DNA of 57,545 nt from a virus (lineage: Duplodnaviria > Caudoviricetes). The DNA lies in the IMG/VR virus record IMGVR_UViG_3300034523_000291, positions 1-57,545 of that record; one strand, written 5' to 3'. Numbering within the stretch: position 1 is the stretch's first letter; each line of letters opens with the position of its first letter. Shown here in pieces: positions 5,007 to 20,979 of the stretch. The translations under genes were made by a program, and so were the position numbers. The notes below the pieces were generated by a model. That model made no database searches. It saw only the letters and a list, made by a program, of their open reading frames with translations, and was not told the DNA's origin.

Positions 5007-6443
5007 GTGAGTAAATACGCGCCCTTAGCAGACTTTCTGAAAGCCCAGGCGCAGGACTCTGTCCAACTGGCATTCGGTCAGATCGATGCGCTAGTCAATG
5101 GCCTGCCGCCCAGTGCACGGAATCATGATGCTTGGTGGGCGAACTCGCGTACGGAGGATAGCCACACGTGGGCTCACTTATGGATCGCTGCTGGTTGGGA
5201 ATGTGTGTCCGTTAACAGGGCAAATGAAACCGCAGTTTTTCACCGAGCCTCAAATCGCTTAGCAAAGCCCATGCGGCGCTACTGGTGGGTTAATCACAAG
5301 CAAACTCATCTAAATGAGTATGCTGGCGGATACATTTGGTCTCCAAAAGAAAAGCGTAATGGTGCGACCAACCAGACGTATCTGAACCTCACTCTCGTGA
5401 GTCCCGGTGATGTAGTAATTTCGTATGCGGATGGGCTAATAAAGGCAGTAGGCGTTGCTTCGGATGCACATCGCGAAGAGCCTATCCCCGACAGTCATTG
5501 GCAGGCTGCTGAATACTGGCAAGCTCTTGGCTGGATGGTGCCGATCATGTGGGCCAGGCTGGATCATCCAATTTCTCCAAAATTACACTTAGATGCCTTG
5601 TTGGACCTTCTTCCAGAGAAGCATTCCCCATTACAGAAAAATGGCGATGGAAATCAGGGATGTTACCTCGCAAGTATTTCTCCAGCGCTAGGTGGAGTGA
5701 TTCTGGGTCTGGTAGCGGATCGCGATTTGAAAGCGTTGACAACAATTCGGGTTACAGCTTCGTCACAAGTGAATGGGCCAGGGGAGGATCACCGCCGTTT
5801 ACCTGCAGAGCAATTACGCAGTGTAACCCCTGAGTATATTTGGGAGGCAGTGCAAAGCTTGCTTCAGGGCCTGACCTCGGAGGAGTTTGGGCCGTCGATT
5901 GATTATGATTTGTTGGTTGATGAAGGGAAGCGACTGGCACCGAAGCAGGTGTTTGGACTTGCCGCAACAGCCGCTCTAGGGTTCACTCTCAAGTCTCGCC
6001 ACTTCACCGCGGGGAAGGGAACTGTTTGTTTCGAACTGCTGGAAGCCGCGGGTTATAAAATAGTCCCGAAAGGCGAGCAAGTCGAGGTGCTCGAAATACC
6101 CAATGACACTGAAGATAGGGAGTGGGCCGAGGGCCAAGTCAAGCTGGTGTATCACCTGAAACGTGAACGCTCACCGGGTCTATCTAGAGCCAAGAAGGCT
6201 TCATTTATCAAGAGGCATGGCCGGCTTTTTTGCGAGGAGTGCGGAACAGATCCTGTCGAAGCGTATGGCGATTTTGGTGTGGCTTGTATTGAGGTTCATC
6301 ATGAGGCGATCCAGGTTGCAGATATGGGCGAGCAGCACAAGACAACCCTAGACCAATTGCGGTGCCTGTGTGCCAACTGTCATCGTGTTCTGCATCGCAA
6401 ATTGAAGGCTCAGATTGTTCACCCTACACCAGCTAACACTTAG
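5007..6443 (+). CDS. Multidomain HNH endonuclease (type IV/McrA-like)
   Basis: N-terminal KYAPL..WWAN domain, EVE/PUA-like YWWVNHKQT..PGDVV, ScoMcrA-head-like DYDLL..PKQVFG, and CEECG..EVHH..CANCHR HNH domain. Confidence 0.85.
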   Translation: MSKYAPLADFLKAQAQDSVQLAFGQIDALVNGLPPSARNHDAWWANSRTEDSHTWAHLWIAAGWECVSVNRANETAVFHRASNRLAKPMRRYWWVNHKQTHLNEYAGGYIWSPKEKRNGATNQTYLNLTLVSPGDVVISYADGLIKAVGVASDAHREEPIPDSHWQAAEYWQALGWMVPIMWARLDHPISPKLHLDALLDLLPEKHSPLQKNGDGNQGCYLASISPALGGVILGLVADRDLKALTTIRVTASSQVNGPGEDHRRLPAEQLRSVTPEYIWEAVQSLLQGLTSEEFGPSIDYDLLVDEGKRLAPKQVFGLAATAALGFTLKSRHFTAGKGTVCFELLEAAGYKIVPKGEQVEVLEIPNDTEDREWAEGQVKLVYHLKRERSPGLSRAKKASFIKRHGRLFCEECGTDPVEAYGDFGVACIEVHHEAIQVADMGEQHKTTLDQLRCLCANCHRVLHRKLKAQIVHPTPANT

Positions 6444-7231
6444 CCCGACGCTATTTCCGCAGCGCTCGGTTGATAGTCGGCTTCAGCCATCTCGCAAAAA
6501 AAAGAGCAAGCTGGTAACGCCTCGTTTCGTCGGGGTTTACCAGGCGAAAGGTCACGTAGAGAGAAACGGATATTGGTCTTACGGTCGCGATGCAGGTACG
6601 AGCCTGAGCCAAGTTCGTCCTGGACACGGCAAAGCTCTTCAAATTGCTCCGGAAAGTCCTCGCGGATCGCTCGAAAGTAGCCTTCGCCACCTTTCACGCA
6701 GCCGATGCAGTTGGCGTTGTCGTAGCCCAGGCGGTACATCAGTGGCAACTCGATCCCAGCGCGCTGGATCATCGCCTTGCAATCCTCTTTGCCCAGGCCC
6801 GCGTCAATCAGCGGGGCAATAACAGGGCGATCAGGGTTTCGGTCTCGGAAGTCTTCCAGGCGGTCTACTTCTTCCATCGTGTAACCAAACACCATCACGT
6901 CGCCAGGGTTCTTCCATGCGTCGAGCAACCGCCGTTTCAACAGCTTTGTGCATGGCGCACCATTGCGCCCTTTCATGAAACGCTCGCGCCGGAAAACCTG
7001 AATGATGTCTGCGCCGTATTTCTCGTCACGCAGTTGCGCAATTCCCTGACCGAACCACTCCTGGCAGTCCAGCAAGAACCGCCGGTTATCTTCATGCTCG
7101 TTTGCCAGAAAAGCATTGATGATCTGCACGTCGTGCGTGGCGCCGTATTGTGCCAGGGCCATCTTTGTGGCCACAGCCGAGGCGGCGCCGCAGCTGAACT
7201 GGCAAACGATTCGGGGTCGTTGTGCGGACAT
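6440..7231 (-). CDS. PAPS-reductase/adenine nucleotide alpha-hydrolase-like protein
   Basis: FSCGAASA PP-loop variant; Cys motifs APC, NCIGCVK, CSFFC. Confidence 0.75.
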   Translation of the reverse strand: MSAQRPRIVCQFSCGAASAVATKMALAQYGATHDVQIINAFLANEHEDNRRFLLDCQEWFGQGIAQLRDEKYGADIIQVFRRERFMKGRNGAPCTKLLKRRLLDAWKNPGDVMVFGYTMEEVDRLEDFRDRNPDRPVIAPLIDAGLGKEDCKAMIQRAGIELPLMYRLGYDNANCIGCVKGGEGYFRAIREDFPEQFEELCRVQDELGSGSYLHRDRKTNIRFSLRDLSPGKPRRNEALPACSFFCEMAEADYQPSAAEIASG

Positions 7232-13827: not shown

Positions 13828-14205
13828 ATGTTCAGATTTTTTCTAGCCACTATTTTTTCATTTGTTTTTCTCGGCGTAATTTCTGGTTGCTCTTCCACTG
13901 CCGAACAAGAAAAAACACTGAGCGCCGGGCTCGTTGCGCATTTGAATAAATTCAAGACGTACCCGATCGCCTCGCAACTGGCCGGGGTTGAAGGGACAAC
14001 CCAACTGCGCTTTACGATAGATGGCGACGGAAATGTCGTTTCTTATGAGCTGGTACAAAGTTCAGGCAATGTGGACTTGGACGCGGCCACTCTAGAATTA
14101 ATCCGTCGCGCCCAACCACTGCCGAAACCACCAGCCGATTTAATGAAAGACGGCCCAATTACGATCATTGCCCCTTTTATCTACTCCCTAGACGGGAATA
14201 TCTGA
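13828..14205 (+). CDS. Lipoprotein with a stand-alone TonB C-terminal domain
   Basis: Lipobox ISGC; YP..GVEGT..F.IDGDGNV..SSG..LDAA..PLPKPP. Confidence 0.85.
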   Translation: MFRFFLATIFSFVFLGVISGCSSTAEQEKTLSAGLVAHLNKFKTYPIASQLAGVEGTTQLRFTIDGDGNVVSYELVQSSGNVDLDAATLELIRRAQPLPKPPADLMKDGPITIIAPFIYSLDGNI

Positions 14206-15308: not shown

Positions 15309-15350
15309 AATATAAGCCCGCTTATTTTATTCGTCAATAAGCAGGCTTAT
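15309..15350 (-). promoter_or_regulatory. pL promoter with two CI operators
   Basis: TTGACG-N17-TATATT on - strand; ATAAG-N4-CTTAT at 15312-15325 and 15337-15350. Confidence 0.85.
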
Positions 15351-15821: not shown

Positions 15822-16647
15822 CTACTTGCCGGAAGAGGCCCACCGAGCCAGCGTCCAATAGGTTGACTGACCAATCCTTGGCTCCTTTGCGTACTCTGTA
15901 GGGCGCTTCAAGCCGACCTGCATAAGATCGTCTCGCACCTGCAGGACAGTCCAGCGAATATCCCTCGCCAAGTCCTTTTGGTGGAAACAATTTTCCCCCG
16001 AGGTTCTGTCAGCCCAGGCGGTGAATTCTGACTGGTTATAGTGAAAGAGGGATTGATTGAAATCGGTAGCGGAAACGCAGCCAAAAGCTGAGCCGTCTAA
16101 AATAACCAGGTCGTCGGCTGATGCACGAAAGGTACCGGGCGCGGCAATGTGTGAGGCTACATTCGCCACCGGGAGCAAACGGTACGCGATCGCACCGATA
16201 ATGATTGCCACGAGACCAGAGCACAGCGCTACGAACAGCGCATTATTGCCAGCTGCCGAAGCTGCTCCCGAAATTACTTCTACAGACTCCGTGACAGGAC
16301 TCTGACTTTCTTGGTTGATGGGCCCTGCGTTATCGTCAGGCAAAACATCGGCGCCGCAATGTTTGCACTTTATTGCTGCGCGCTTGATGGTCTCGGCGCA
16401 CATTGGGCAAATCCTGTCAGAAGAGGCGCCGATCTCAGAGGGCAGCTTTTGTTCTGTATTCGCCGAAACCGACCATACGAGCGCTGCCACCCATCCAAGT
16501 GCTGTCCAGCCTAGCAACAGGTTCATCAAAAAAAATCGAGTTGCCGTTGCGATGCTTGCGCTTTGCAGCCACGAAGGTGGGCGTGAAATATATGACGAAG
16601 GCAGCCATTAGAAGCACAAAGCCGGCCAGTGGACTTCCACTATCCAT
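15822..16647 (-). pseudogene. T4 Imm-like superinfection immunity protein fused to a zinc ribbon and C-terminal domain; frameshift in an 8-nt homopolymer (16528-16535)
   Basis: YFTPTFVAAKRKHRNGNSIF joins LMNLLLGWTALGWVAALVW if one T is removed; CPMC..CKHC follows. Confidence 0.8.
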
Positions 16648-16776
16648 ACCAAAAAACTAGTCCATTGAATTGAGTTAGCACTTTATCATTCGTGGCGTAC
16701 AGCCACCATTGGCGGCGTACGGATTCAGGTCGGGTAGGGGAGATACAAGAAGCCCGGCGCTGGACCGGGCTTTTGA

Positions 16777-16908
16777 TCAGGAGCAGGTCCCGCCCTTATG
16801 GTGCGATCCTGTTCCACCTGTTGGGTGAGTGCCTTTTGGACACGCCGAGGCAGAGAAGGAAGCTATCGAAAGCAGGGCTACCAAGCCAATTACAGCGAAT
16901 TTTTTCAT
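16777..16908 (-). CDS. 43-aa secreted peptide precursor (absent from ORF track)
   Basis: GGAGG SD; MKKFAVIGLVALLSIASFSASA-CPKGTHPTGGTGSHHKGGTCS*; hairpin follows the stop. Confidence 0.75.
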   Translation of the reverse strand: MKKFAVIGLVALLSIASFSASACPKGTHPTGGTGSHHKGGTCS

Positions 16909-16988
16909 AGAGCCTCCATGCACTGCGGAATGCAGTATCAGGGCATCGGCGTGTCGAGATATTGCTTGAGTGAAGAAATTCGGTGAAT

Positions 16989-17315
16989 TCAGAAGGACGA
17001 TGCAATCGCCTGAGCCAGTTGCATGTCGCTCATCAAAGGCGAGCTGTAGGTCGCCCTGTAGTACCTGGAGGCTTGCTCAAACTGAGCGCCGCGAATTTCG
17101 CCGTCTGATCCTATGAATGCAAGCGCATCAGTCTTTGCTGATTTGAGTGGTTTTTGCGAATCGTCCGACGTATAGCTCGGTAACGTCGTCAAAGCGGTTG
17201 GCAAGATTGATGTGTAGGTCATCACTTTATCGAACGGGGTGGCCTTTTCATTCGCCGTTACGTGGTTGCCGATCAGCACCATCGCAGCGATTGCCAGAGT
17301 CTTCCATGTGTCCAT
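16989..17315 (-). CDS. DUF2388-like secreted protein
   Basis: Signal peptide; AKTDALAFIGSDGEIRGAQFEQA..SDMQLAQAI. Confidence 0.75.
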   Translation of the reverse strand: MDTWKTLAIAAMVLIGNHVTANEKATPFDKVMTYTSILPTALTTLPSYTSDDSQKPLKSAKTDALAFIGSDGEIRGAQFEQASRYYRATYSSPLMSDMQLAQAIASSF

Positions 17316-17423
17316 TCTTCGATACTTCCATTGCGATCAGAGGGCGCCACCATAGCAAAGCAAGGGGCTTGCCAGAAACAAGAGGCCCGGCGCTGGGCCG
17401 GGCTTAACCTATTCCGGGCTTTA

Positions 17424-18497
17424 TCAGACAACCCTGAGACGAGGAGGCGTTATCGGACGGTTCGGCTCGGGTTGCTCTCCTAGCACCCCTTGGAGAAGAG
17501 AGTCCATCTCATCGAGAGGAAGGTTAAGTTGATCGGCAATCGACTCCTTCGTATAGCGATCCTTCCAAAGCTCTTCAAGCACTTTTCGCCAAAGCACAGA
17601 GAATTCCCTATCCATAGATTGGGGTTCCTTTGTTCTATAGCCAGCTATTGCAATCTGCTTGCAGATCTCTCTGTAATGCCAATCAGATAAAATATTTACA
17701 TCCCTAAGGCTCCGAGCCAAAGCAGGTACAGAAACTCCCCATCTTTTCTTGCTGGCGATAATTTGTGAAATGGATCTTACTGAGGGAAGATTTGCAATCA
17801 AATCTTCCCTGGGTATCAACAGGTTAGACGCAAATGCGTCCGCATCTCGCTCAACATCAGAGCCTTCAGTATAACCATGCGCATGCATTAGCAAATGGCC
17901 CAGCTCATGAGCGGCGTCGAACCGGCTGCGTTCTGACGACTTTATGGTATTCAAAAAAATAAATGGAGTGCCATCTCTCCAAAATGAGAATGCGTCAACG
18001 TCACGACCTTCCGACAAAGTGAAGATCCGAACACCTTTAGATTCGAGAAGCTTGATCAAGTTTGGTATAGGACGGAACCCAAGGCCCCAATGACGCCTAA
18101 TTGATGCTGCAGCTGAAACTGGATCTTCATCTCTTAGATCGAGTAGGTCTTGTGTGGGAAGATTAAATTTACTTGCAACCCAGTCGTTGAATAGATACCC
18201 AAGCGCACCGCTGGCTAATGCCGCGTCTGTTTGTTTGGCAGTCATTGATTTTAGACTACGAAAACTTACCTGCTTGCTATGTAGCTCATCTACATCGTCA
18301 AGATAAAAGAACTCAACTGGATACTTTAAAGCCTTCGCTATTGCGGCTACTGTTTCTGTTGAGGGTTCAATGGTAACCCCTTTTGCTATCCTAGAGAGTG
18401 TGACTTGAGTAACTCCAGACAGCTCTGCGAGTTTTTTTTGCGTAAGCTGCCTGCGCTTTCTAGCGAAGTCGAGCCGTGAAAGATTGAGATTCGCCAT
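17424..18497 (-). CDS. XRE-HTH plus ImmA/IrrE (M78) zinc metallopeptidase
   Basis: N-terminal HTH LTQKKLAELSGV; RFDAAHELGH (HExxH); ERDADAFA. Confidence 0.9.
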   Translation of the reverse strand: MANLNLSRLDFARKRRQLTQKKLAELSGVTQVTLSRIAKGVTIEPSTETVAAIAKALKYPVEFFYLDDVDELHSKQVSFRSLKSMTAKQTDAALASGALGYLFNDWVASKFNLPTQDLLDLRDEDPVSAAASIRRHWGLGFRPIPNLIKLLESKGVRIFTLSEGRDVDAFSFWRDGTPFIFLNTIKSSERSRFDAAHELGHLLMHAHGYTEGSDVERDADAFASNLLIPREDLIANLPSVRSISQIIASKKRWGVSVPALARSLRDVNILSDWHYREICKQIAIAGYRTKEPQSMDREFSVLWRKVLEELWKDRYTKESIADQLNLPLDEMDSLLQGVLGEQPEPNRPITPPRLRVV

Positions 18498-18499
18498 CT

Positions 18500-19144
18500 T
18501 TATTTTTTCGAAATCAGAATTTCTGGCTCATCGACAATGCCTTCCGCCGCGGGAGCAGTCGCGAATTCCAGCAGGTCGATATCTTTATCAGCAACAAAAA
18601 TTCGGTCAAAGAAACCTACGAAGTGATCTTCTGTGAATGGTTTTGGCCTGGATACCTCAACCTCCAATCGTTTTGCGTTAGCCGATACGCAAACGAACCA
18701 TACCACCGGAAAGCTACCATCCGGACGACTGTCCACAACATCAGCCCTAGGGAAGAGACTTTGCGCATGAGGGGCAGCTACTAAATCACGTGTAGCCTCT
18801 CCTTTAGGTGAAATCGCTTGCGGCTCGATATCCTTGCAAGCGTGATCTACGTTTTGAAAACCCAGCATGATCCCAAGGTCGTCATTAACTACAATCTCGA
18901 TATTTCTGAAGTTGCCAGTTCTCCAACCGCTAGGAAGTGTCTCTAGGCGGAGGTGCCGAATCCCGGCCTGATAAGCTTGAGTACCAGGGAAGTTGACTGG
19001 GTCAACCCCTTCTAGGTATTCGGATCGAGCGCTCGCTGCTGCCATACCAATTTTGATGATCTGGTCAGAGGTGAGACCCAGGGCGTCAAGGCTGCGCTTA
19101 ATATCGTATGGCTGGTCGATAATACCGAGAGCATGATTGGACAT
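18500..19144 (-). CDS. Hypothetical partner of the HTH-peptidase
   Basis: Stop 2 nt before peptidase start; same reduced GC. Confidence 0.75.
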   Translation of the reverse strand: MSNHALGIIDQPYDIKRSLDALGLTSDQIIKIGMAAASARSEYLEGVDPVNFPGTQAYQAGIRHLRLETLPSGWRTGNFRNIEIVVNDDLGIMLGFQNVDHACKDIEPQAISPKGEATRDLVAAPHAQSLFPRADVVDSRPDGSFPVVWFVCVSANAKRLEVEVSRPKPFTEDHFVGFFDRIFVADKDIDLLEFATAPAAEGIVDEPEILISKK

Positions 19145-19270
19145 ATTTTCACCTGATGTTAATTTTTTCTTCCTACATTGTAGGTTAAAAAAATTAACAT
19201 GCAATGGCTGGTCGATGAGCGCGCAGGCCTTTCGGATTTACTTCAGTGATCCTGTCCGACCACAGTCGCC

Positions 19271-19513
19271 TCAAAAACGCGCGCCATAGAAGTGATTCAG
19301 CGCTATCAGTTCAACCACAGCCACGAAAACGCAGAGCACAACGAAGCCAGGGCTGAAGACCCGCTTGCGGCCGGATGAGCTCCAGCTAAGACCAGCTGCG
19401 TCGGAGTAGCCGGGGATCATCATAAGCAACGCCAGGCAAGCAATTACCCCAACCTTGCTCCAGAAGGACCGCTCTCGCCATGAGGTCGAAGGTTTTCCAA
19501 GGGCGGATGGCAT
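19271..19513 (-). CDS. Small membrane protein coupled to cI
   Basis: TGATG overlap with cI stop; two hydrophobic segments. Confidence 0.6.
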   Translation of the reverse strand: MPSALGKPSTSWRERSFWSKVGVIACLALLMMIPGYSDAAGLSWSSSGRKRVFSPGFVVLCVFVAVVELIALNHFYGARF

Positions 19514-20172
19514 CAGTAAAATTTCTGCAGCGCCTGCACAACCACGCCCACGATCCGGCAGTTCTCGTCCACCGCCTCGATCGGGTAGCTGGGGTTCAGC
19601 GGCTTCAGGAACAGTCGACCGCCATCGCTGACCAGCTTCTTGAACGTCGCTTCGTTGCTGTCTGGCAGCTTGGCTACCACCAGCTTGCCTGGGGCGACTT
19701 CGGCCTCAGTGTCCACCAGGATCAGAGTGCCTTCAGTGATGCTCTGACCGGCGGGCGCCGTCATTGAGTCACCTTTCACCTTCAGCCAAAACGCTGTGCC
19801 CTTGGAGTCGTACTCCGAAAACTCATAGCTGTCAGAGAATCCGGCCGGGTAGGGCTCAACAGCCTCCGCCCAGGCGCCGGCGGCAACCCAGCTGATTACG
19901 GGGTAGCGGAATGATTTGGTGGGCTGCGCGGCAATAGAGATATTTGACTCGGCAGCGCTTACACCTGTCATTGGCCCGGTATTTTCGGAGAGCCAAATAG
20001 CGTTCACACCACACACATGGGCGATCTTCGGCAGGTGTGCGCTTTGAAGGTTCTTTCCGGTCTCCAGCTGGGAGATTACCGGCTGCTCAACACCCACTTT
20101 TAAGGCGAGCGCCTTCTGCGTCAGCTTGGCGTGATTGCGTGCGGTTTTGATTCGTTCGGCGAGTGTGCTCAT
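19513..20172 (-). CDS. cI: CI-type repressor (HTH plus S24 peptidase)
   Basis: HTH; VAAG cleavage site; GDSM serine; TFKKL lysine. Confidence 0.93.
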   Translation of the reverse strand: MSTLAERIKTARNHAKLTQKALALKVGVEQPVISQLETGKNLQSAHLPKIAHVCGVNAIWLSENTGPMTGVSAAESNISIAAQPTKSFRYPVISWVAAGAWAEAVEPYPAGFSDSYEFSEYDSKGTAFWLKVKGDSMTAPAGQSITEGTLILVDTEAEVAPGKLVVAKLPDSNEATFKKLVSDGGRLFLKPLNPSYPIEAVDENCRIVGVVVQALQKFY

Positions 20173-20184
20173 CAGCTGGAATTT

Positions 20185-20245
20185 ATAAGTTCCCTTATCG
20201 GCTTGCAAATAAGTTTCCTTCTACTTAGGATATAAGCAGGCTTAT
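20185..20245 (+). promoter_or_regulatory. oR region: three operators and pR
   Basis: ATAAG-N4-CTTAT at 20185-20198 and 20232-20245, one-mismatch copy at 20209-20222; TTGCAA-N17-TAGGAT at 20203-20231. Confidence 0.85.
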
Positions 20246-20553: not shown

Positions 20554-20979
20554 ATGCAGGACTTGATGAAGGCGATCTATGACGTTGTGGACGACCACGG
20601 GGCAGGGCGGATTGCAGAGGGCGCTAGCTTCTGTTCGAAGACGCTGCTTTCCCAAAAGGCGAACCCTGACTACGACAGCCACAAGCTGAACGTCCAGGAG
20701 CTGCACCGGATTATGAAGTTCACCCAGGACTTCCGCCCACTGAAGGCTTGGGCCGAGGCTTTCGGCTTCGACTTGGTACCGAAGGACAAGCCAGAAGGAA
20801 TCAACCTCAACACCGCGCTACTGCGCTTGCACACCGATCTGGCTGACGTGACCCGCCTTGCGTTCGACGCCCAGGCCGATGGCCGCGTTTGCACTCGCGA
20901 GAAGTCCGAGCTGCTCAAGGAGGCAGAGGAAGTGATCGTCAGCCTGGAAGTATTCAAGCAGTCCGTGAAGGCGGCCTGA
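20554..20979 (+). CDS. CII-family phage regulator
   Basis: LLSQKANPD..HKL..ADGRV..E pattern; follows cro. Confidence 0.8.
   Translation: MQDLMKAIYDVVDDHGAGRIAEGASFCSKTLLSQKANPDYDSHKLNVQELHRIMKFTQDFRPLKAWAEAFGFDLVPKDKPEGINLNTALLRLHTDLADVTRLAFDAQADGRVCTREKSELLKEAEEVIVSLEVFKQSVKAA

Follow-up and report, generated by a model that had tools for sequence, protein, structure and literature searches.

We analyzed IMG/VR virus record IMGVR_UViG_3300034523_000291 over its whole length of 57,545 nucleotides (nt) (hereafter the window), a 57.5-kb provirus record of Pseudomonas type with a lambdoid gene order. Our subject is a 43-codon open reading frame (ORF) on the minus strand, MKKFAVIGLVALLSIASFSASACPKGTHPTGGTGSHHKGGTCS, which begins with an ATG at 16908-16906. 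The original prediction, made from the letters of the window, had seen here a secreted Cys/His peptide gene in the immunity region, with a Shine-Dalgarno GGAGG, a Sec signal peptide ending in ASA, a mature peptide and a hairpin of its own. All of these sequence features are present (listed below), and the proposed anatomy stands: a small Cys/His peptide, putatively exported, whose gene has its own terminator and occupies a lysogenic cargo slot. In addition, we found a sigma-28-type promoter, absent from that prediction, that would tie the gene to the motility regulon, and not to the cI/pL switch, a connection that we consider rather likely. The parts of the unit, in the order of transcription, are as follows.

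16943-16969, minus strand: predicted sigma-28-type promoter, with the -35 element TCAAG at 16969-16965, 14 bases, and the -10 element GCCGATGC at 16950-16943
16922-16936, minus strand: small hairpin ACTGC-ATTCC-GCAGT at the predicted 5' end of the transcript (single-sequence fold and 30-module consensus fold)
16913-16917, minus strand: Shine-Dalgarno GGAGG, four bases before the ATG (read from the sequence)
16777-16908, minus strand: peptide ORF of 43 codons (read from the sequence)
16843-16908, minus strand: predicted signal peptide, residues 1-22, MKKFAVIGLVALLSIASFSASA (MKK, hydrophobic core FAVIGLVALLSIASF, SASA)
16780-16842, minus strand: predicted mature peptide of 21 residues, CPKGTHPTGGTGSHHKGGTCS, with Cys1 and Cys20
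16777-16779, minus strand: stop codon TGA
16741-16772, minus strand: intrinsic-terminator-like hairpin and T-rich tail (repeat and hairpin scan)

The peptide gene and its predicted product

A word-indexed protein search recovered 18 homologue clusters of 41 to 69 amino acids, in which the mature part is near-invariant and the signal peptide drifts. Pattern scans yielded 87 relatives in a one-genome-per-species collection, of which 80 were kept, and a further 64 among IMG/VR contigs; after dropping duplicates and five loci outside the search pattern, we retained 128 non-redundant loci. These contain 110 distinct 60-nt cores that encode 23 peptides, with about 100% identity at codon positions 1 and 2 and 30 to 75% identity at the third, and the ratio of nonsynonymous to synonymous substitution rates (dN/dS) was about 0.05 in the 134 of 400 sampled pairs with an estimable dS. 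It weighs against these values that the loci were found by peptide patterns, which inflates conservation at the pattern positions. An exhaustive profile search that used no pattern words returned 89 representative clusters at E<=0.001, of which 19 reach E<=1e-10. The peptide ORF is a genuine gene under purifying selection, and the conservation anticipated by the original prediction was thereby found. The antisense ORF at 16692-16910 was rejected as the conserved frame, its second codon positions being the variable wobble sites of the peptide frame.

A chance ORF or a decayed remnant without function would be in keeping with the shortness of the ORF and with four RNA runs in which no contig lies over it. 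However, the synonymous-only variation among the 110 cores, the 89 clusters of the profile search, and the conservation of start signals and terminators all argue against such an origin, which we regard as extremely improbable. Indeed, a Shine-Dalgarno-like motif was found at 106 of the 128 loci. In the window, the terminator stem-loop (16772-16750, 9 pairs) begins 5 bases past the stop codon and is followed by CTTGTAT. Of 35 Pseudomonas-type modules, 29 have a hairpin 5 to 6 nt past the stop; among all 128 loci, 81 have one of -8 kcal/mol or better within 45 nt.

The processing of the precursor was then judged from the residues around the predicted cleavage site, with simple signal peptidase I and lipobox patterns. 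The signal peptidase I rule, [AVSTGLI]-x-[AGS] at -3/-1, fits 273 of 275 distinct family proteins, 233 of them with a strict A-x-A; Ala occupies position -3 in 241 and position -1 in 267, while Phe or Met is found at -2 in 174. Alternatively, the product could be a small lipoprotein acylated at Cys+1, like the receptor-masking lipoproteins Cor and Llp, since a Cys directly follows the signal peptide in every member and a permissive PROSITE-style lipoprotein pattern would accept ASAC. The lipobox [LVI][ASTVI][GAS]C fits 4 of the 275 proteins, however, and both the frequent Ala at -3 and the Phe or Met at -2 speak against it, as does a second invariant Cys at the far end, which suits a disulfide better than a lone thiol. 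We thus hold acylation to be very unlikely. Because the signal peptidase I rule fits nearly all family proteins and the lipobox so few, a free 21-mer starting at Cys is the most likely product.

Neither Cys1 nor Cys20 varies among 61 aligned sequences, distant relatives included, and a disulfide between them probably closes a 20-residue ring. The AlphaFold2 model weighs on the other side: its mean predicted local distance difference test (pLDDT) score is 70, and the loop, at 62-70, is of low confidence, too weak a basis for fold searches. From the conservation of the frame and of the cleavage site together, it appears very likely that the gene is real and its product exported.

The predicted sigma-28 promoter

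Upstream of the gene, the pattern THAAR-N14-GCCGAT has its single match in the whole window, both strands included (16969-16945; 0.14 matches expected by chance), and this box is placed 36 nt before the ATG. A box with the same spacing was present at 37 of the 128 loci; among control windows of 150 nt drawn at random from these loci, 7 of 2308 had one. Of the 37 boxes, 31 have a -10 element whose end is 34 nt from the ATG. The 35 Pseudomonas-type loci can be aligned over about 65 nt ahead of the ATG. The module alignment shows two conserved leader blocks, T[C/A/T]AAG and GCCGAT(A)(G), separated by 14 bases that vary freely. In 11 of the 35 Pseudomonas-type modules, the terminator hairpin of the preceding gene ends 66 to 69 nt before the ATG, which leaves space for little beyond a promoter and a leader.

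The sigma-28 consensus is given as TAAAGTTT-N11-GCCGATAA, i.e., TAAA-N15-GCCGATAA, in an excerpt of PMC7286023, and in the fliC promoter of Pseudomonas aeruginosa, according to an excerpt of PMC12784957, TCTAAAG spans -36 to -30 and GCCGATAA spans -15 to -8. The window, with TCAA-N15-GCCGATGC, has the same spacing as fliC and the consensus. The box variants seen in the modules, TCAAG (flgKL), TTAAG (ycgR), GCCGATAG (flxA), and GCCGATG (trg), all occur in Escherichia coli FliA promoters mapped by chromatin immunoprecipitation, as listed in an excerpt of PMC4183435.

In one complete module-bearing Pseudomonas genome (G001), the sigma-28 pattern was found at 12 places and the reversed pattern at 1. 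The matches precede the peptide gene, a CheW+REC (CheV-like) gene, flgK, and three genes of the methyl-accepting chemotaxis protein (MCP) type, one of which was seen only up to its HAMP domain; of the other six, one was found at a DUF3530 gene, one at 230 nt from a YceD fragment, and four at ORFs for which Pfam gave no match. The conserved boxes, their spacing and the company of these matches favor the view, at better than even weight, that the peptide gene is under FliA control. By the numbering of the P. aeruginosa fliC promoter, transcription is predicted to start near 16935, at the foot of the 16936-16922 hairpin. This hairpin may serve as a stabilizer or a regulator site; its pairs are invariant in the 30 modules, so that it gives no covariation signal. 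A long-range pairing between the leader and the cleavage-site codons was discarded, as it was lost in the 30-module consensus fold, where the surviving helices showed almost no covariation.

Several observations weigh against FliA control, or against a role confined to motile cells. A simple sigma-70 scan of 16300-17500 gave no promoter, and the last two bases of the -10 element in the window deviate from the consensus. The box is limited to Pseudomonas-type modules, most of which have a common ancestry, so that the 37 loci are not independent; because most of them are related, it is the conserved elements and the free spacer that carry the sigma-28 argument. Four RNA runs examined over 16400-17500 contained no contig across the peptide ORF (RNA-labelled runs gave small shares, and flanking pieces only), which is evidence in neither direction. 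Modules of the Enterobacterales lack the sigma-28 box and have a different upstream signal, and Acinetobacter, which we take to be non-flagellate, retains a long form of the gene. For these last two reasons, the core function is not specific to the flagellum.

The signal of the Enterobacterales modules is a 15-bp palindrome, CTGAT-N5-ATCAG, found in 22 of 2352 control windows and, 48 to 76 nt before the ATG, at 28 of the 128 loci; at all but two of these 28 the distance is 61 to 76 nt. All loci with this palindrome are from Enterobacterales (e.g., L023, L029, L038, and L109), and it could be assigned to no regulator familiar to us. A TATATT-like -10 element follows the palindrome at several of them.

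Prophage genes of this kind have a name: a moron, in the sense of "The moron comes of age" (PMC3594210), is an independent promoter-gene-terminator unit in a prophage. The peptide gene would be a self-contained moron composed of a sigma-28-type promoter, a short leader bearing the 5' hairpin, a ribosome binding site, 43 codons, and an intrinsic terminator. RNA polymerase carrying FliA would transcribe the unit in motile cells, alongside flagellin, chemoreceptor, and late motility genes, and expression would follow the motility state of the host rather than the cI/pL switch. The precursor would pass through Sec, signal peptidase I would cut after ASA to free the 21-mer starting at Cys, and the periplasmic Dsb system would join Cys1 to Cys20 into a Gly/His-rich ring. 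This ring of about 2 kDa would stay and act in the periplasm of the lysogen. Retention is proposed because of its size, a 2-kDa ring being large for general porins, and because no exporter is associated with the gene. What the sequences show is conservation, purifying selection, the pattern of a signal peptide, promoter and terminator motifs, and the mobility of the module; from these we infer export, the cleavage site, the disulfide, FliA dependence in vivo, and periplasmic retention. The chain as a whole, from the FliA-driven unit through Sec export, cleavage, and disulfide formation to the periplasm, with any metal step left aside, is held tentatively, with slightly less than even confidence.

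Genomic settings and the wider family

The following features surround the peptide gene in the window.

1-1194: integrase
15822-16647, minus strand: superinfection-immunity gene (PF14373, then a zinc ribbon), in two frames
16989-17315, minus strand: DUF2388 protein of 108 amino acids, the upstream neighbor (Pfam PF09498, E 2.9e-17)
17374-17405, minus strand: second copy of the terminator repeat, 91% identical, after the RmrA gene
17424-18497, minus strand: HTH_3 and Peptidase_M78 gene (Pfam)
19513-20208, minus strand: cI-like helix-turn-helix/S24 repressor (Pfam scan)
20554-20979, plus strand: CII-like gene (Pfam scan)

The lambdoid layout also includes a Gp157-type early gene. A 14-bp palindrome, ATAAGCAGGCTTAT, lies in the cI-cro gap at 20232-20245, with further copies at 15337-15350 (100%) and 15312-15325 (86%). 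The two left copies are about 4.9 kb from the cI-cro copy, and the set represents candidate oR and oL operators. Because the copies at 15312-15350 resemble oL, the peptide gene can be assigned to the slot between cI and pL, as originally proposed, a position that the S24 repressor also supports; in lambda, rexAB occupy the equivalent slot. The nearby helix-turn-helix zinc peptidase of the original prediction is likewise there, in the form of the HTH_3 and Peptidase_M78 gene. This gene and the preceding 234-amino-acid ORF, which together span 17424-19204 on the minus strand, match the RosmerTA anti-phage toxin-antitoxin pair (RmrA, E 8e-134; RmrT, E 4e-29), which makes a defence island of the slot after cI.

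The DUF2388 gene is separate cargo, found beside the peptide gene only in close relatives of the provirus. Both genes are flanked by the 32-nt direct repeats at 16741-16772 and 17374-17405, each a terminator hairpin, and these shared repeats could act as recombination points in cargo swapping. The next gene downstream of the peptide gene is the Imm_superinfect gene, which is broken at a run of eight T (about 16527-16536). Of its relatives, L084 has seven T, read as keeping the frame open, and L082 has six; one metatranscriptome contig is one base shorter at this run. The run is either a phase-variable tract or a homopolymer sequencing error. In the early-left region, on the opposite strand, a 125-amino-acid ORF (13828-14205, plus strand) has a signal peptide and, following SG, a Cys; it also has a TonB C-terminal domain and may be further envelope-directed cargo. 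Near the integrase end (5007-7231), a 478-amino-acid DUF7662 protein with an HNH-like C terminus and a convergent 263-amino-acid PAPS-reductase/SspD-like ORF may represent further defence-type cargo.

We next compared the settings of the 128 loci. ORFs were called around each locus and clustered, representatives were annotated, and recurring phage marker clusters were used to sort the loci as follows.

22 of 128 loci: immunity region (S24 repressor or cII marker)
15 of 128 loci: lysis cassette of P21-type holin, lysozyme, and Rz, divergent from the peptide gene
8 of 128 loci: tail genes, either between K and I/J or beside the tape measure gene
4 of 128 loci: antiterminator Q and Rha
1 of 128 loci: both lysis and Q/Rha markers
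78 of 128 loci: none of these phage markers

The genes between cI and the peptide gene vary by phage (RmrA/RmrT, a 666-amino-acid HATPase_c_3 protein, RhuM, YafO, or DUF6932). Across settings, the upstream neighbors are RmrA, the HATPase_c_3 protein, RhuM, YafO, DUF2388, tail genes, or a holin, with no recurrent regulator among them. A phage marker was present at 43 of the 51 viral-contig loci (window included) and at 7 of the 77 loci of the one-genome-per-species set. In the latter set the homologues are thus largely outside phages, which counts against the original prediction in one half of the refuting condition that it had named. Taking the closest large ORF on either side of the 70 species-genome loci that lack a marker gave 136 ORFs, of which 106 were annotated; the other 30 were set aside by hand, not row by row, as repeats of annotated loci. 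By Pfam, these flanks encode MCPs, regulators, transporters, and enzymes, or else transposases, toxin-antitoxin parts, Hcp, and autotransporters; P63C was the sole phage-type domain recognized among the 106. The peptide gene is a small mobile module often carried, not owned, by phages. The immunity region of the isolated phage phiAH14a contains the 100-nt backbone that adjoins the module (window 16668-16772), and the peptide gene was not found in that phage.

These settings bear on the lead proposal of the original prediction, an exported signal with arbitrium-like logic. A peptide made by lysogens to steer lysis-lysogeny, or another communication peptide, would agree with a short precursor that has a signal peptide and lies in the immunity region of a temperate phage. 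However, no receptor-like or regulatory gene is co-conserved with it and the genes from cI to the peptide gene differ among phages. The gene occupies at least four unrelated prophage positions, including tail clusters and sites by lysis cassettes or antiterminator Q, as well as many non-phage chromosomal sites. What is conserved is the entire 20-residue Cys-to-Cys loop rather than a short C-terminal tail, no route across the outer membrane is apparent, and the predicted promoter is of the host flagellar type and not linked to cI. The proposal is thus not borne out, and we give it a very low probability. The peptide looks like cargo acting in the host periplasm, and not like a phage-to-phage signal.

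Two further observations concern other loci. In Enterobacterales prophages, a second small secreted ORF lies 32 nt after the peptide gene (L108:6165-6314, plus strand; same place in L109-L126). It has 50 amino acids, an Asp-rich mature part, GNCQHPDDTAADGSRCGGRSADSRPGGQ, with two Cys, and a match to phrog_14503, "membrane associated protein" of the moron category. Caballeronia pedi, Cedecea neteri, and an Enterobacteriaceae isolate each have two copies of the peptide gene at separate loci (L036/L045, L035/L050, and L055/L076 being the locus pairs).

The family extends beyond these short forms. Many representatives from the profile search are long forms of 80 to 150 amino acids, which have the same signal peptide and the Cys loop C-P-x-G-x-x-x-x-G-G-x-G-x-x-H-K-G-G-x-C, followed by a low-complexity tail. 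A scan for them found 206 relatives, and 78 of the 79 loci kept are from Acinetobacter. At 77 of the 79 kept loci (L145-L223), the gene is at one conserved chromosomal locus, whose neighbors we take, by eye, to be ychF, purT, and glnE; the long form is a core Acinetobacter gene. A Crp/Fnr-like neighbor, also recognized by eye, lies upstream in 57 Acinetobacter loci, at a median of 172 nt before the long form. Besides Acinetobacter, the family was found in Pseudomonas, many Enterobacterales, Caballeronia, and marine gamma-proteobacteria. The long tails contain 20% K, 19.5% A, 14% T, 4.3% H, and 4.3% M; in 26 of 128, His and Met make up at least 15%, with repeats such as MKHDQM and MPMKMD, and some Acinetobacter tails are arrays of Met/His repeats. 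The 20-residue core has about 3 His in 26 short forms (tail below 25 amino acids) compared to 1.4 in long-tailed forms.

No family match for the peptide was obtained in Pfam, NCBIfam, PHROGs, or PADLOC. In Pfam, the window peptide had no match at E<=0.01 and 14 relatives had none at E<=1; four short forms searched against NCBIfam gave nothing, including no YHYH-named match at E<=1. The sole match of a PDB profile search, a stretch of ribosomal uL2 (HPHGG-GSHQKGGT, E 3.7), was taken as chance. In the ESM Atlas, we set aside unnamed clusters at up to 0.87 and a YdcA family lead at 0.77, below the trusted level, and a named-only search with the long form gave nothing. A tblastn search of the peptide returned zero matches in 50,697 phage and 72,556 plasmid records, where the low-complexity filter may mask the Gly/His core and makes these negatives weak, and a blastn search of 801 nt against phages found the flanking backbone only. 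The Enterobacterales module had no megablast match in complete E. coli genomes. The peptide was not described in the literature searched (YHYH, arbitrium in Gram-negatives, and small secreted phage proteins), although supplements to small-protein catalogues may list the family; the same holds for the excerpt of "The Cryptic Bacterial Microproteome" (PMC11188072), in which the peptide was not met and whose supplementary tables may list it. The gene is unannotated in the record, as originally stated. Elsewhere this does not hold throughout: two homologues carry the label "YHYH domain-containing protein" in their source records and some others "hypothetical protein."

Possible functions and comparison with known systems

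As a first guess at an activity, and in agreement with one of the alternatives named in the original prediction, the peptide may bind a transition metal (Cu, Zn, or Ni) via His6, His14, and His15, a possibility that we rate as doubtful. The guess is prompted by the invariant His residues among Gly (all three are invariant in the pattern-found short forms), by a fourth His in most Enterobacterales forms, by the Met/His repeats in a fifth of the long tails, and by P0103. The latter, a distant metagenomic relative of 72 amino acids (E 2.4e-4), has two tandem copies of the His/Gly motif and zero Cys. Three observations weigh against metal binding: only the HKGG His is at least 90% conserved across the wider family alignments, no metal-homeostasis genes recur among the neighbors at the annotated loci, and most long tails are merely Lys/Ala/Thr-rich.

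The wider family also bears on the view that the peptide is a small periplasmic binding module for the envelope or for the motility/chemosensory apparatus. The Cys loop would dock on a stator, a ring protein, the sensor domain of a chemoreceptor, or an envelope polymer; the long forms would add a polycationic tail, and the prophage forms would be the bare module. In line with this, the same loop occurs with Lys/Ala/Thr-rich tails in the wider family, and the Gly, Cys, Pro, and HKGG positions are conserved while most His positions vary. There is also apparent co-regulation with MCP, CheV-like, and FlgK genes, and an MCP gene lies nearby in 9 loci. On the other hand, no partner is co-conserved, and an MCP gene near 9 of 128 loci (of which several are orthologous) is roughly the chance level; MCP genes are numerous in Pseudomonas, and we put the link between the two genes down to chance. 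We consider a binding module unlikely as it stands, though not strongly so.

A somewhat less probable reading, in our view, and one akin to the receptor blocker named in the original prediction, is that of a periplasmic superinfection-exclusion factor or entry blocker, which would bind a part of the entry route or an incoming phage protein and protect motile lysogens. The FliA timing would make sense for such a blocker, one aimed at flagellum-dependent phages for instance, as the predicted sigma-28 promoter would confine expression to flagellated cells. The prophage copies are found among defence and exclusion cargo, with RosmerTA and, directly downstream, Imm_superinfect in the window, and elsewhere with YafO, RhuM, the 666-amino-acid HATPase_c_3 protein, or a Rap1a immunity protein. 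However, the company of morons is weak evidence. Most species-genome copies are away from phage genes (7 of 77 with markers), with flanks that are ordinary or hold other accessory genes, and the long form is a core gene of Acinetobacter. Moreover, no known exclusion family in Pfam, NCBIfam, PHROGs, or PADLOC matches the peptide.

Combining the promoter with these functions, we put forward as a conjecture, to which we assign a similarly low probability, that a mini-gene of Pseudomonas temperate phages is wired to the flagellar sigma factor, and that the disulfide-closed 21-mer, filling the periplasm of motile lysogens only, shields against flagellum-linked entry of other phages or retunes motility or chemotaxis, possibly via a bound metal ion. 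If this were true, phage cargo would be reading the motility state of the host rather than the switch of its own phage, and would do so with an undescribed peptide fold. Should sigma-28 control be real, it would clearly exemplify prophage cargo that has been connected to a developmental regulon of the host. More generally, this is a widespread family of very small secreted proteins, undescribed in the protein-family libraries searched, and genes this short are routinely overlooked by annotation.

The peptide can be compared with several known systems. Its likeness to the YHYH domain (PF14240) lies in the label on two homologues; it differs in that neither the window peptide nor 14 relatives match the profile, and the label looks like an automatic carry-over. 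YHYH domains are themselves predicted, not shown, to bind zinc via His, according to excerpts of PMC7824862 and bioRxiv 10.64898/2026.10.18.759936. Like AimP of the arbitrium system of Bacillus phages, the peptide is made as a short secreted precursor near temperate-phage immunity genes. Unlike AimP, it has no AimR-like neighbor and no fixed place in the genome, and its host is Gram-negative, with an outer membrane. The arbitrium signal of AimP is a C-terminal hexapeptide, compared to a Cys-closed 20-mer here. With exclusion proteins of the T4 Imm and Spackle type it would share production by the resident phage and action at the envelope, and here an Imm_superinfect gene adjoins it downstream; but there is no sequence similarity, and the peptide family is also chromosomal, with a long form that is core in one genus. 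Short His/Gly-rich copper motifs and Met/His-rich periplasmic copper proteins are familiar chemistry, and the peptide resembles them in its His by Gly-Gly, its several His in 21 residues, and the Met/His tails of some relatives; it differs in that only one His is conserved family-wide.

The closest comparison is with prophage morons, of which bor and lom of lambda are examples. As in these, backbone genes are interrupted by a small unit that has its own terminator and, apparently, its own promoter; its place differs from phage to phage, and some relatives have the unit whereas in others none was found. It differs in its product, which would be a soluble peptide of 21 residues from an undescribed family, and in its predicted promoter, of the sigma-28 rather than the housekeeping type. 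For such a promoter, E. coli flxA and ynjH offer a parallel; flxA belongs to a cryptic prophage, and the YnjH protein carries a signal peptide. According to an excerpt of PMC4183435, both are sigma-28-driven genes outside the flagellar clusters, FliA-dependent and without a known role in motility, and the -10 element of flxA, GCCGATAG, is the version found in most modules here; FliA dependence is experimental for flxA and ynjH and predicted for the peptide gene. Overall, the copies in Pseudomonas prophages seem to be under the control of the flagellar sigma factor and would, in this respect, represent a modestly surprising variant of the moron.

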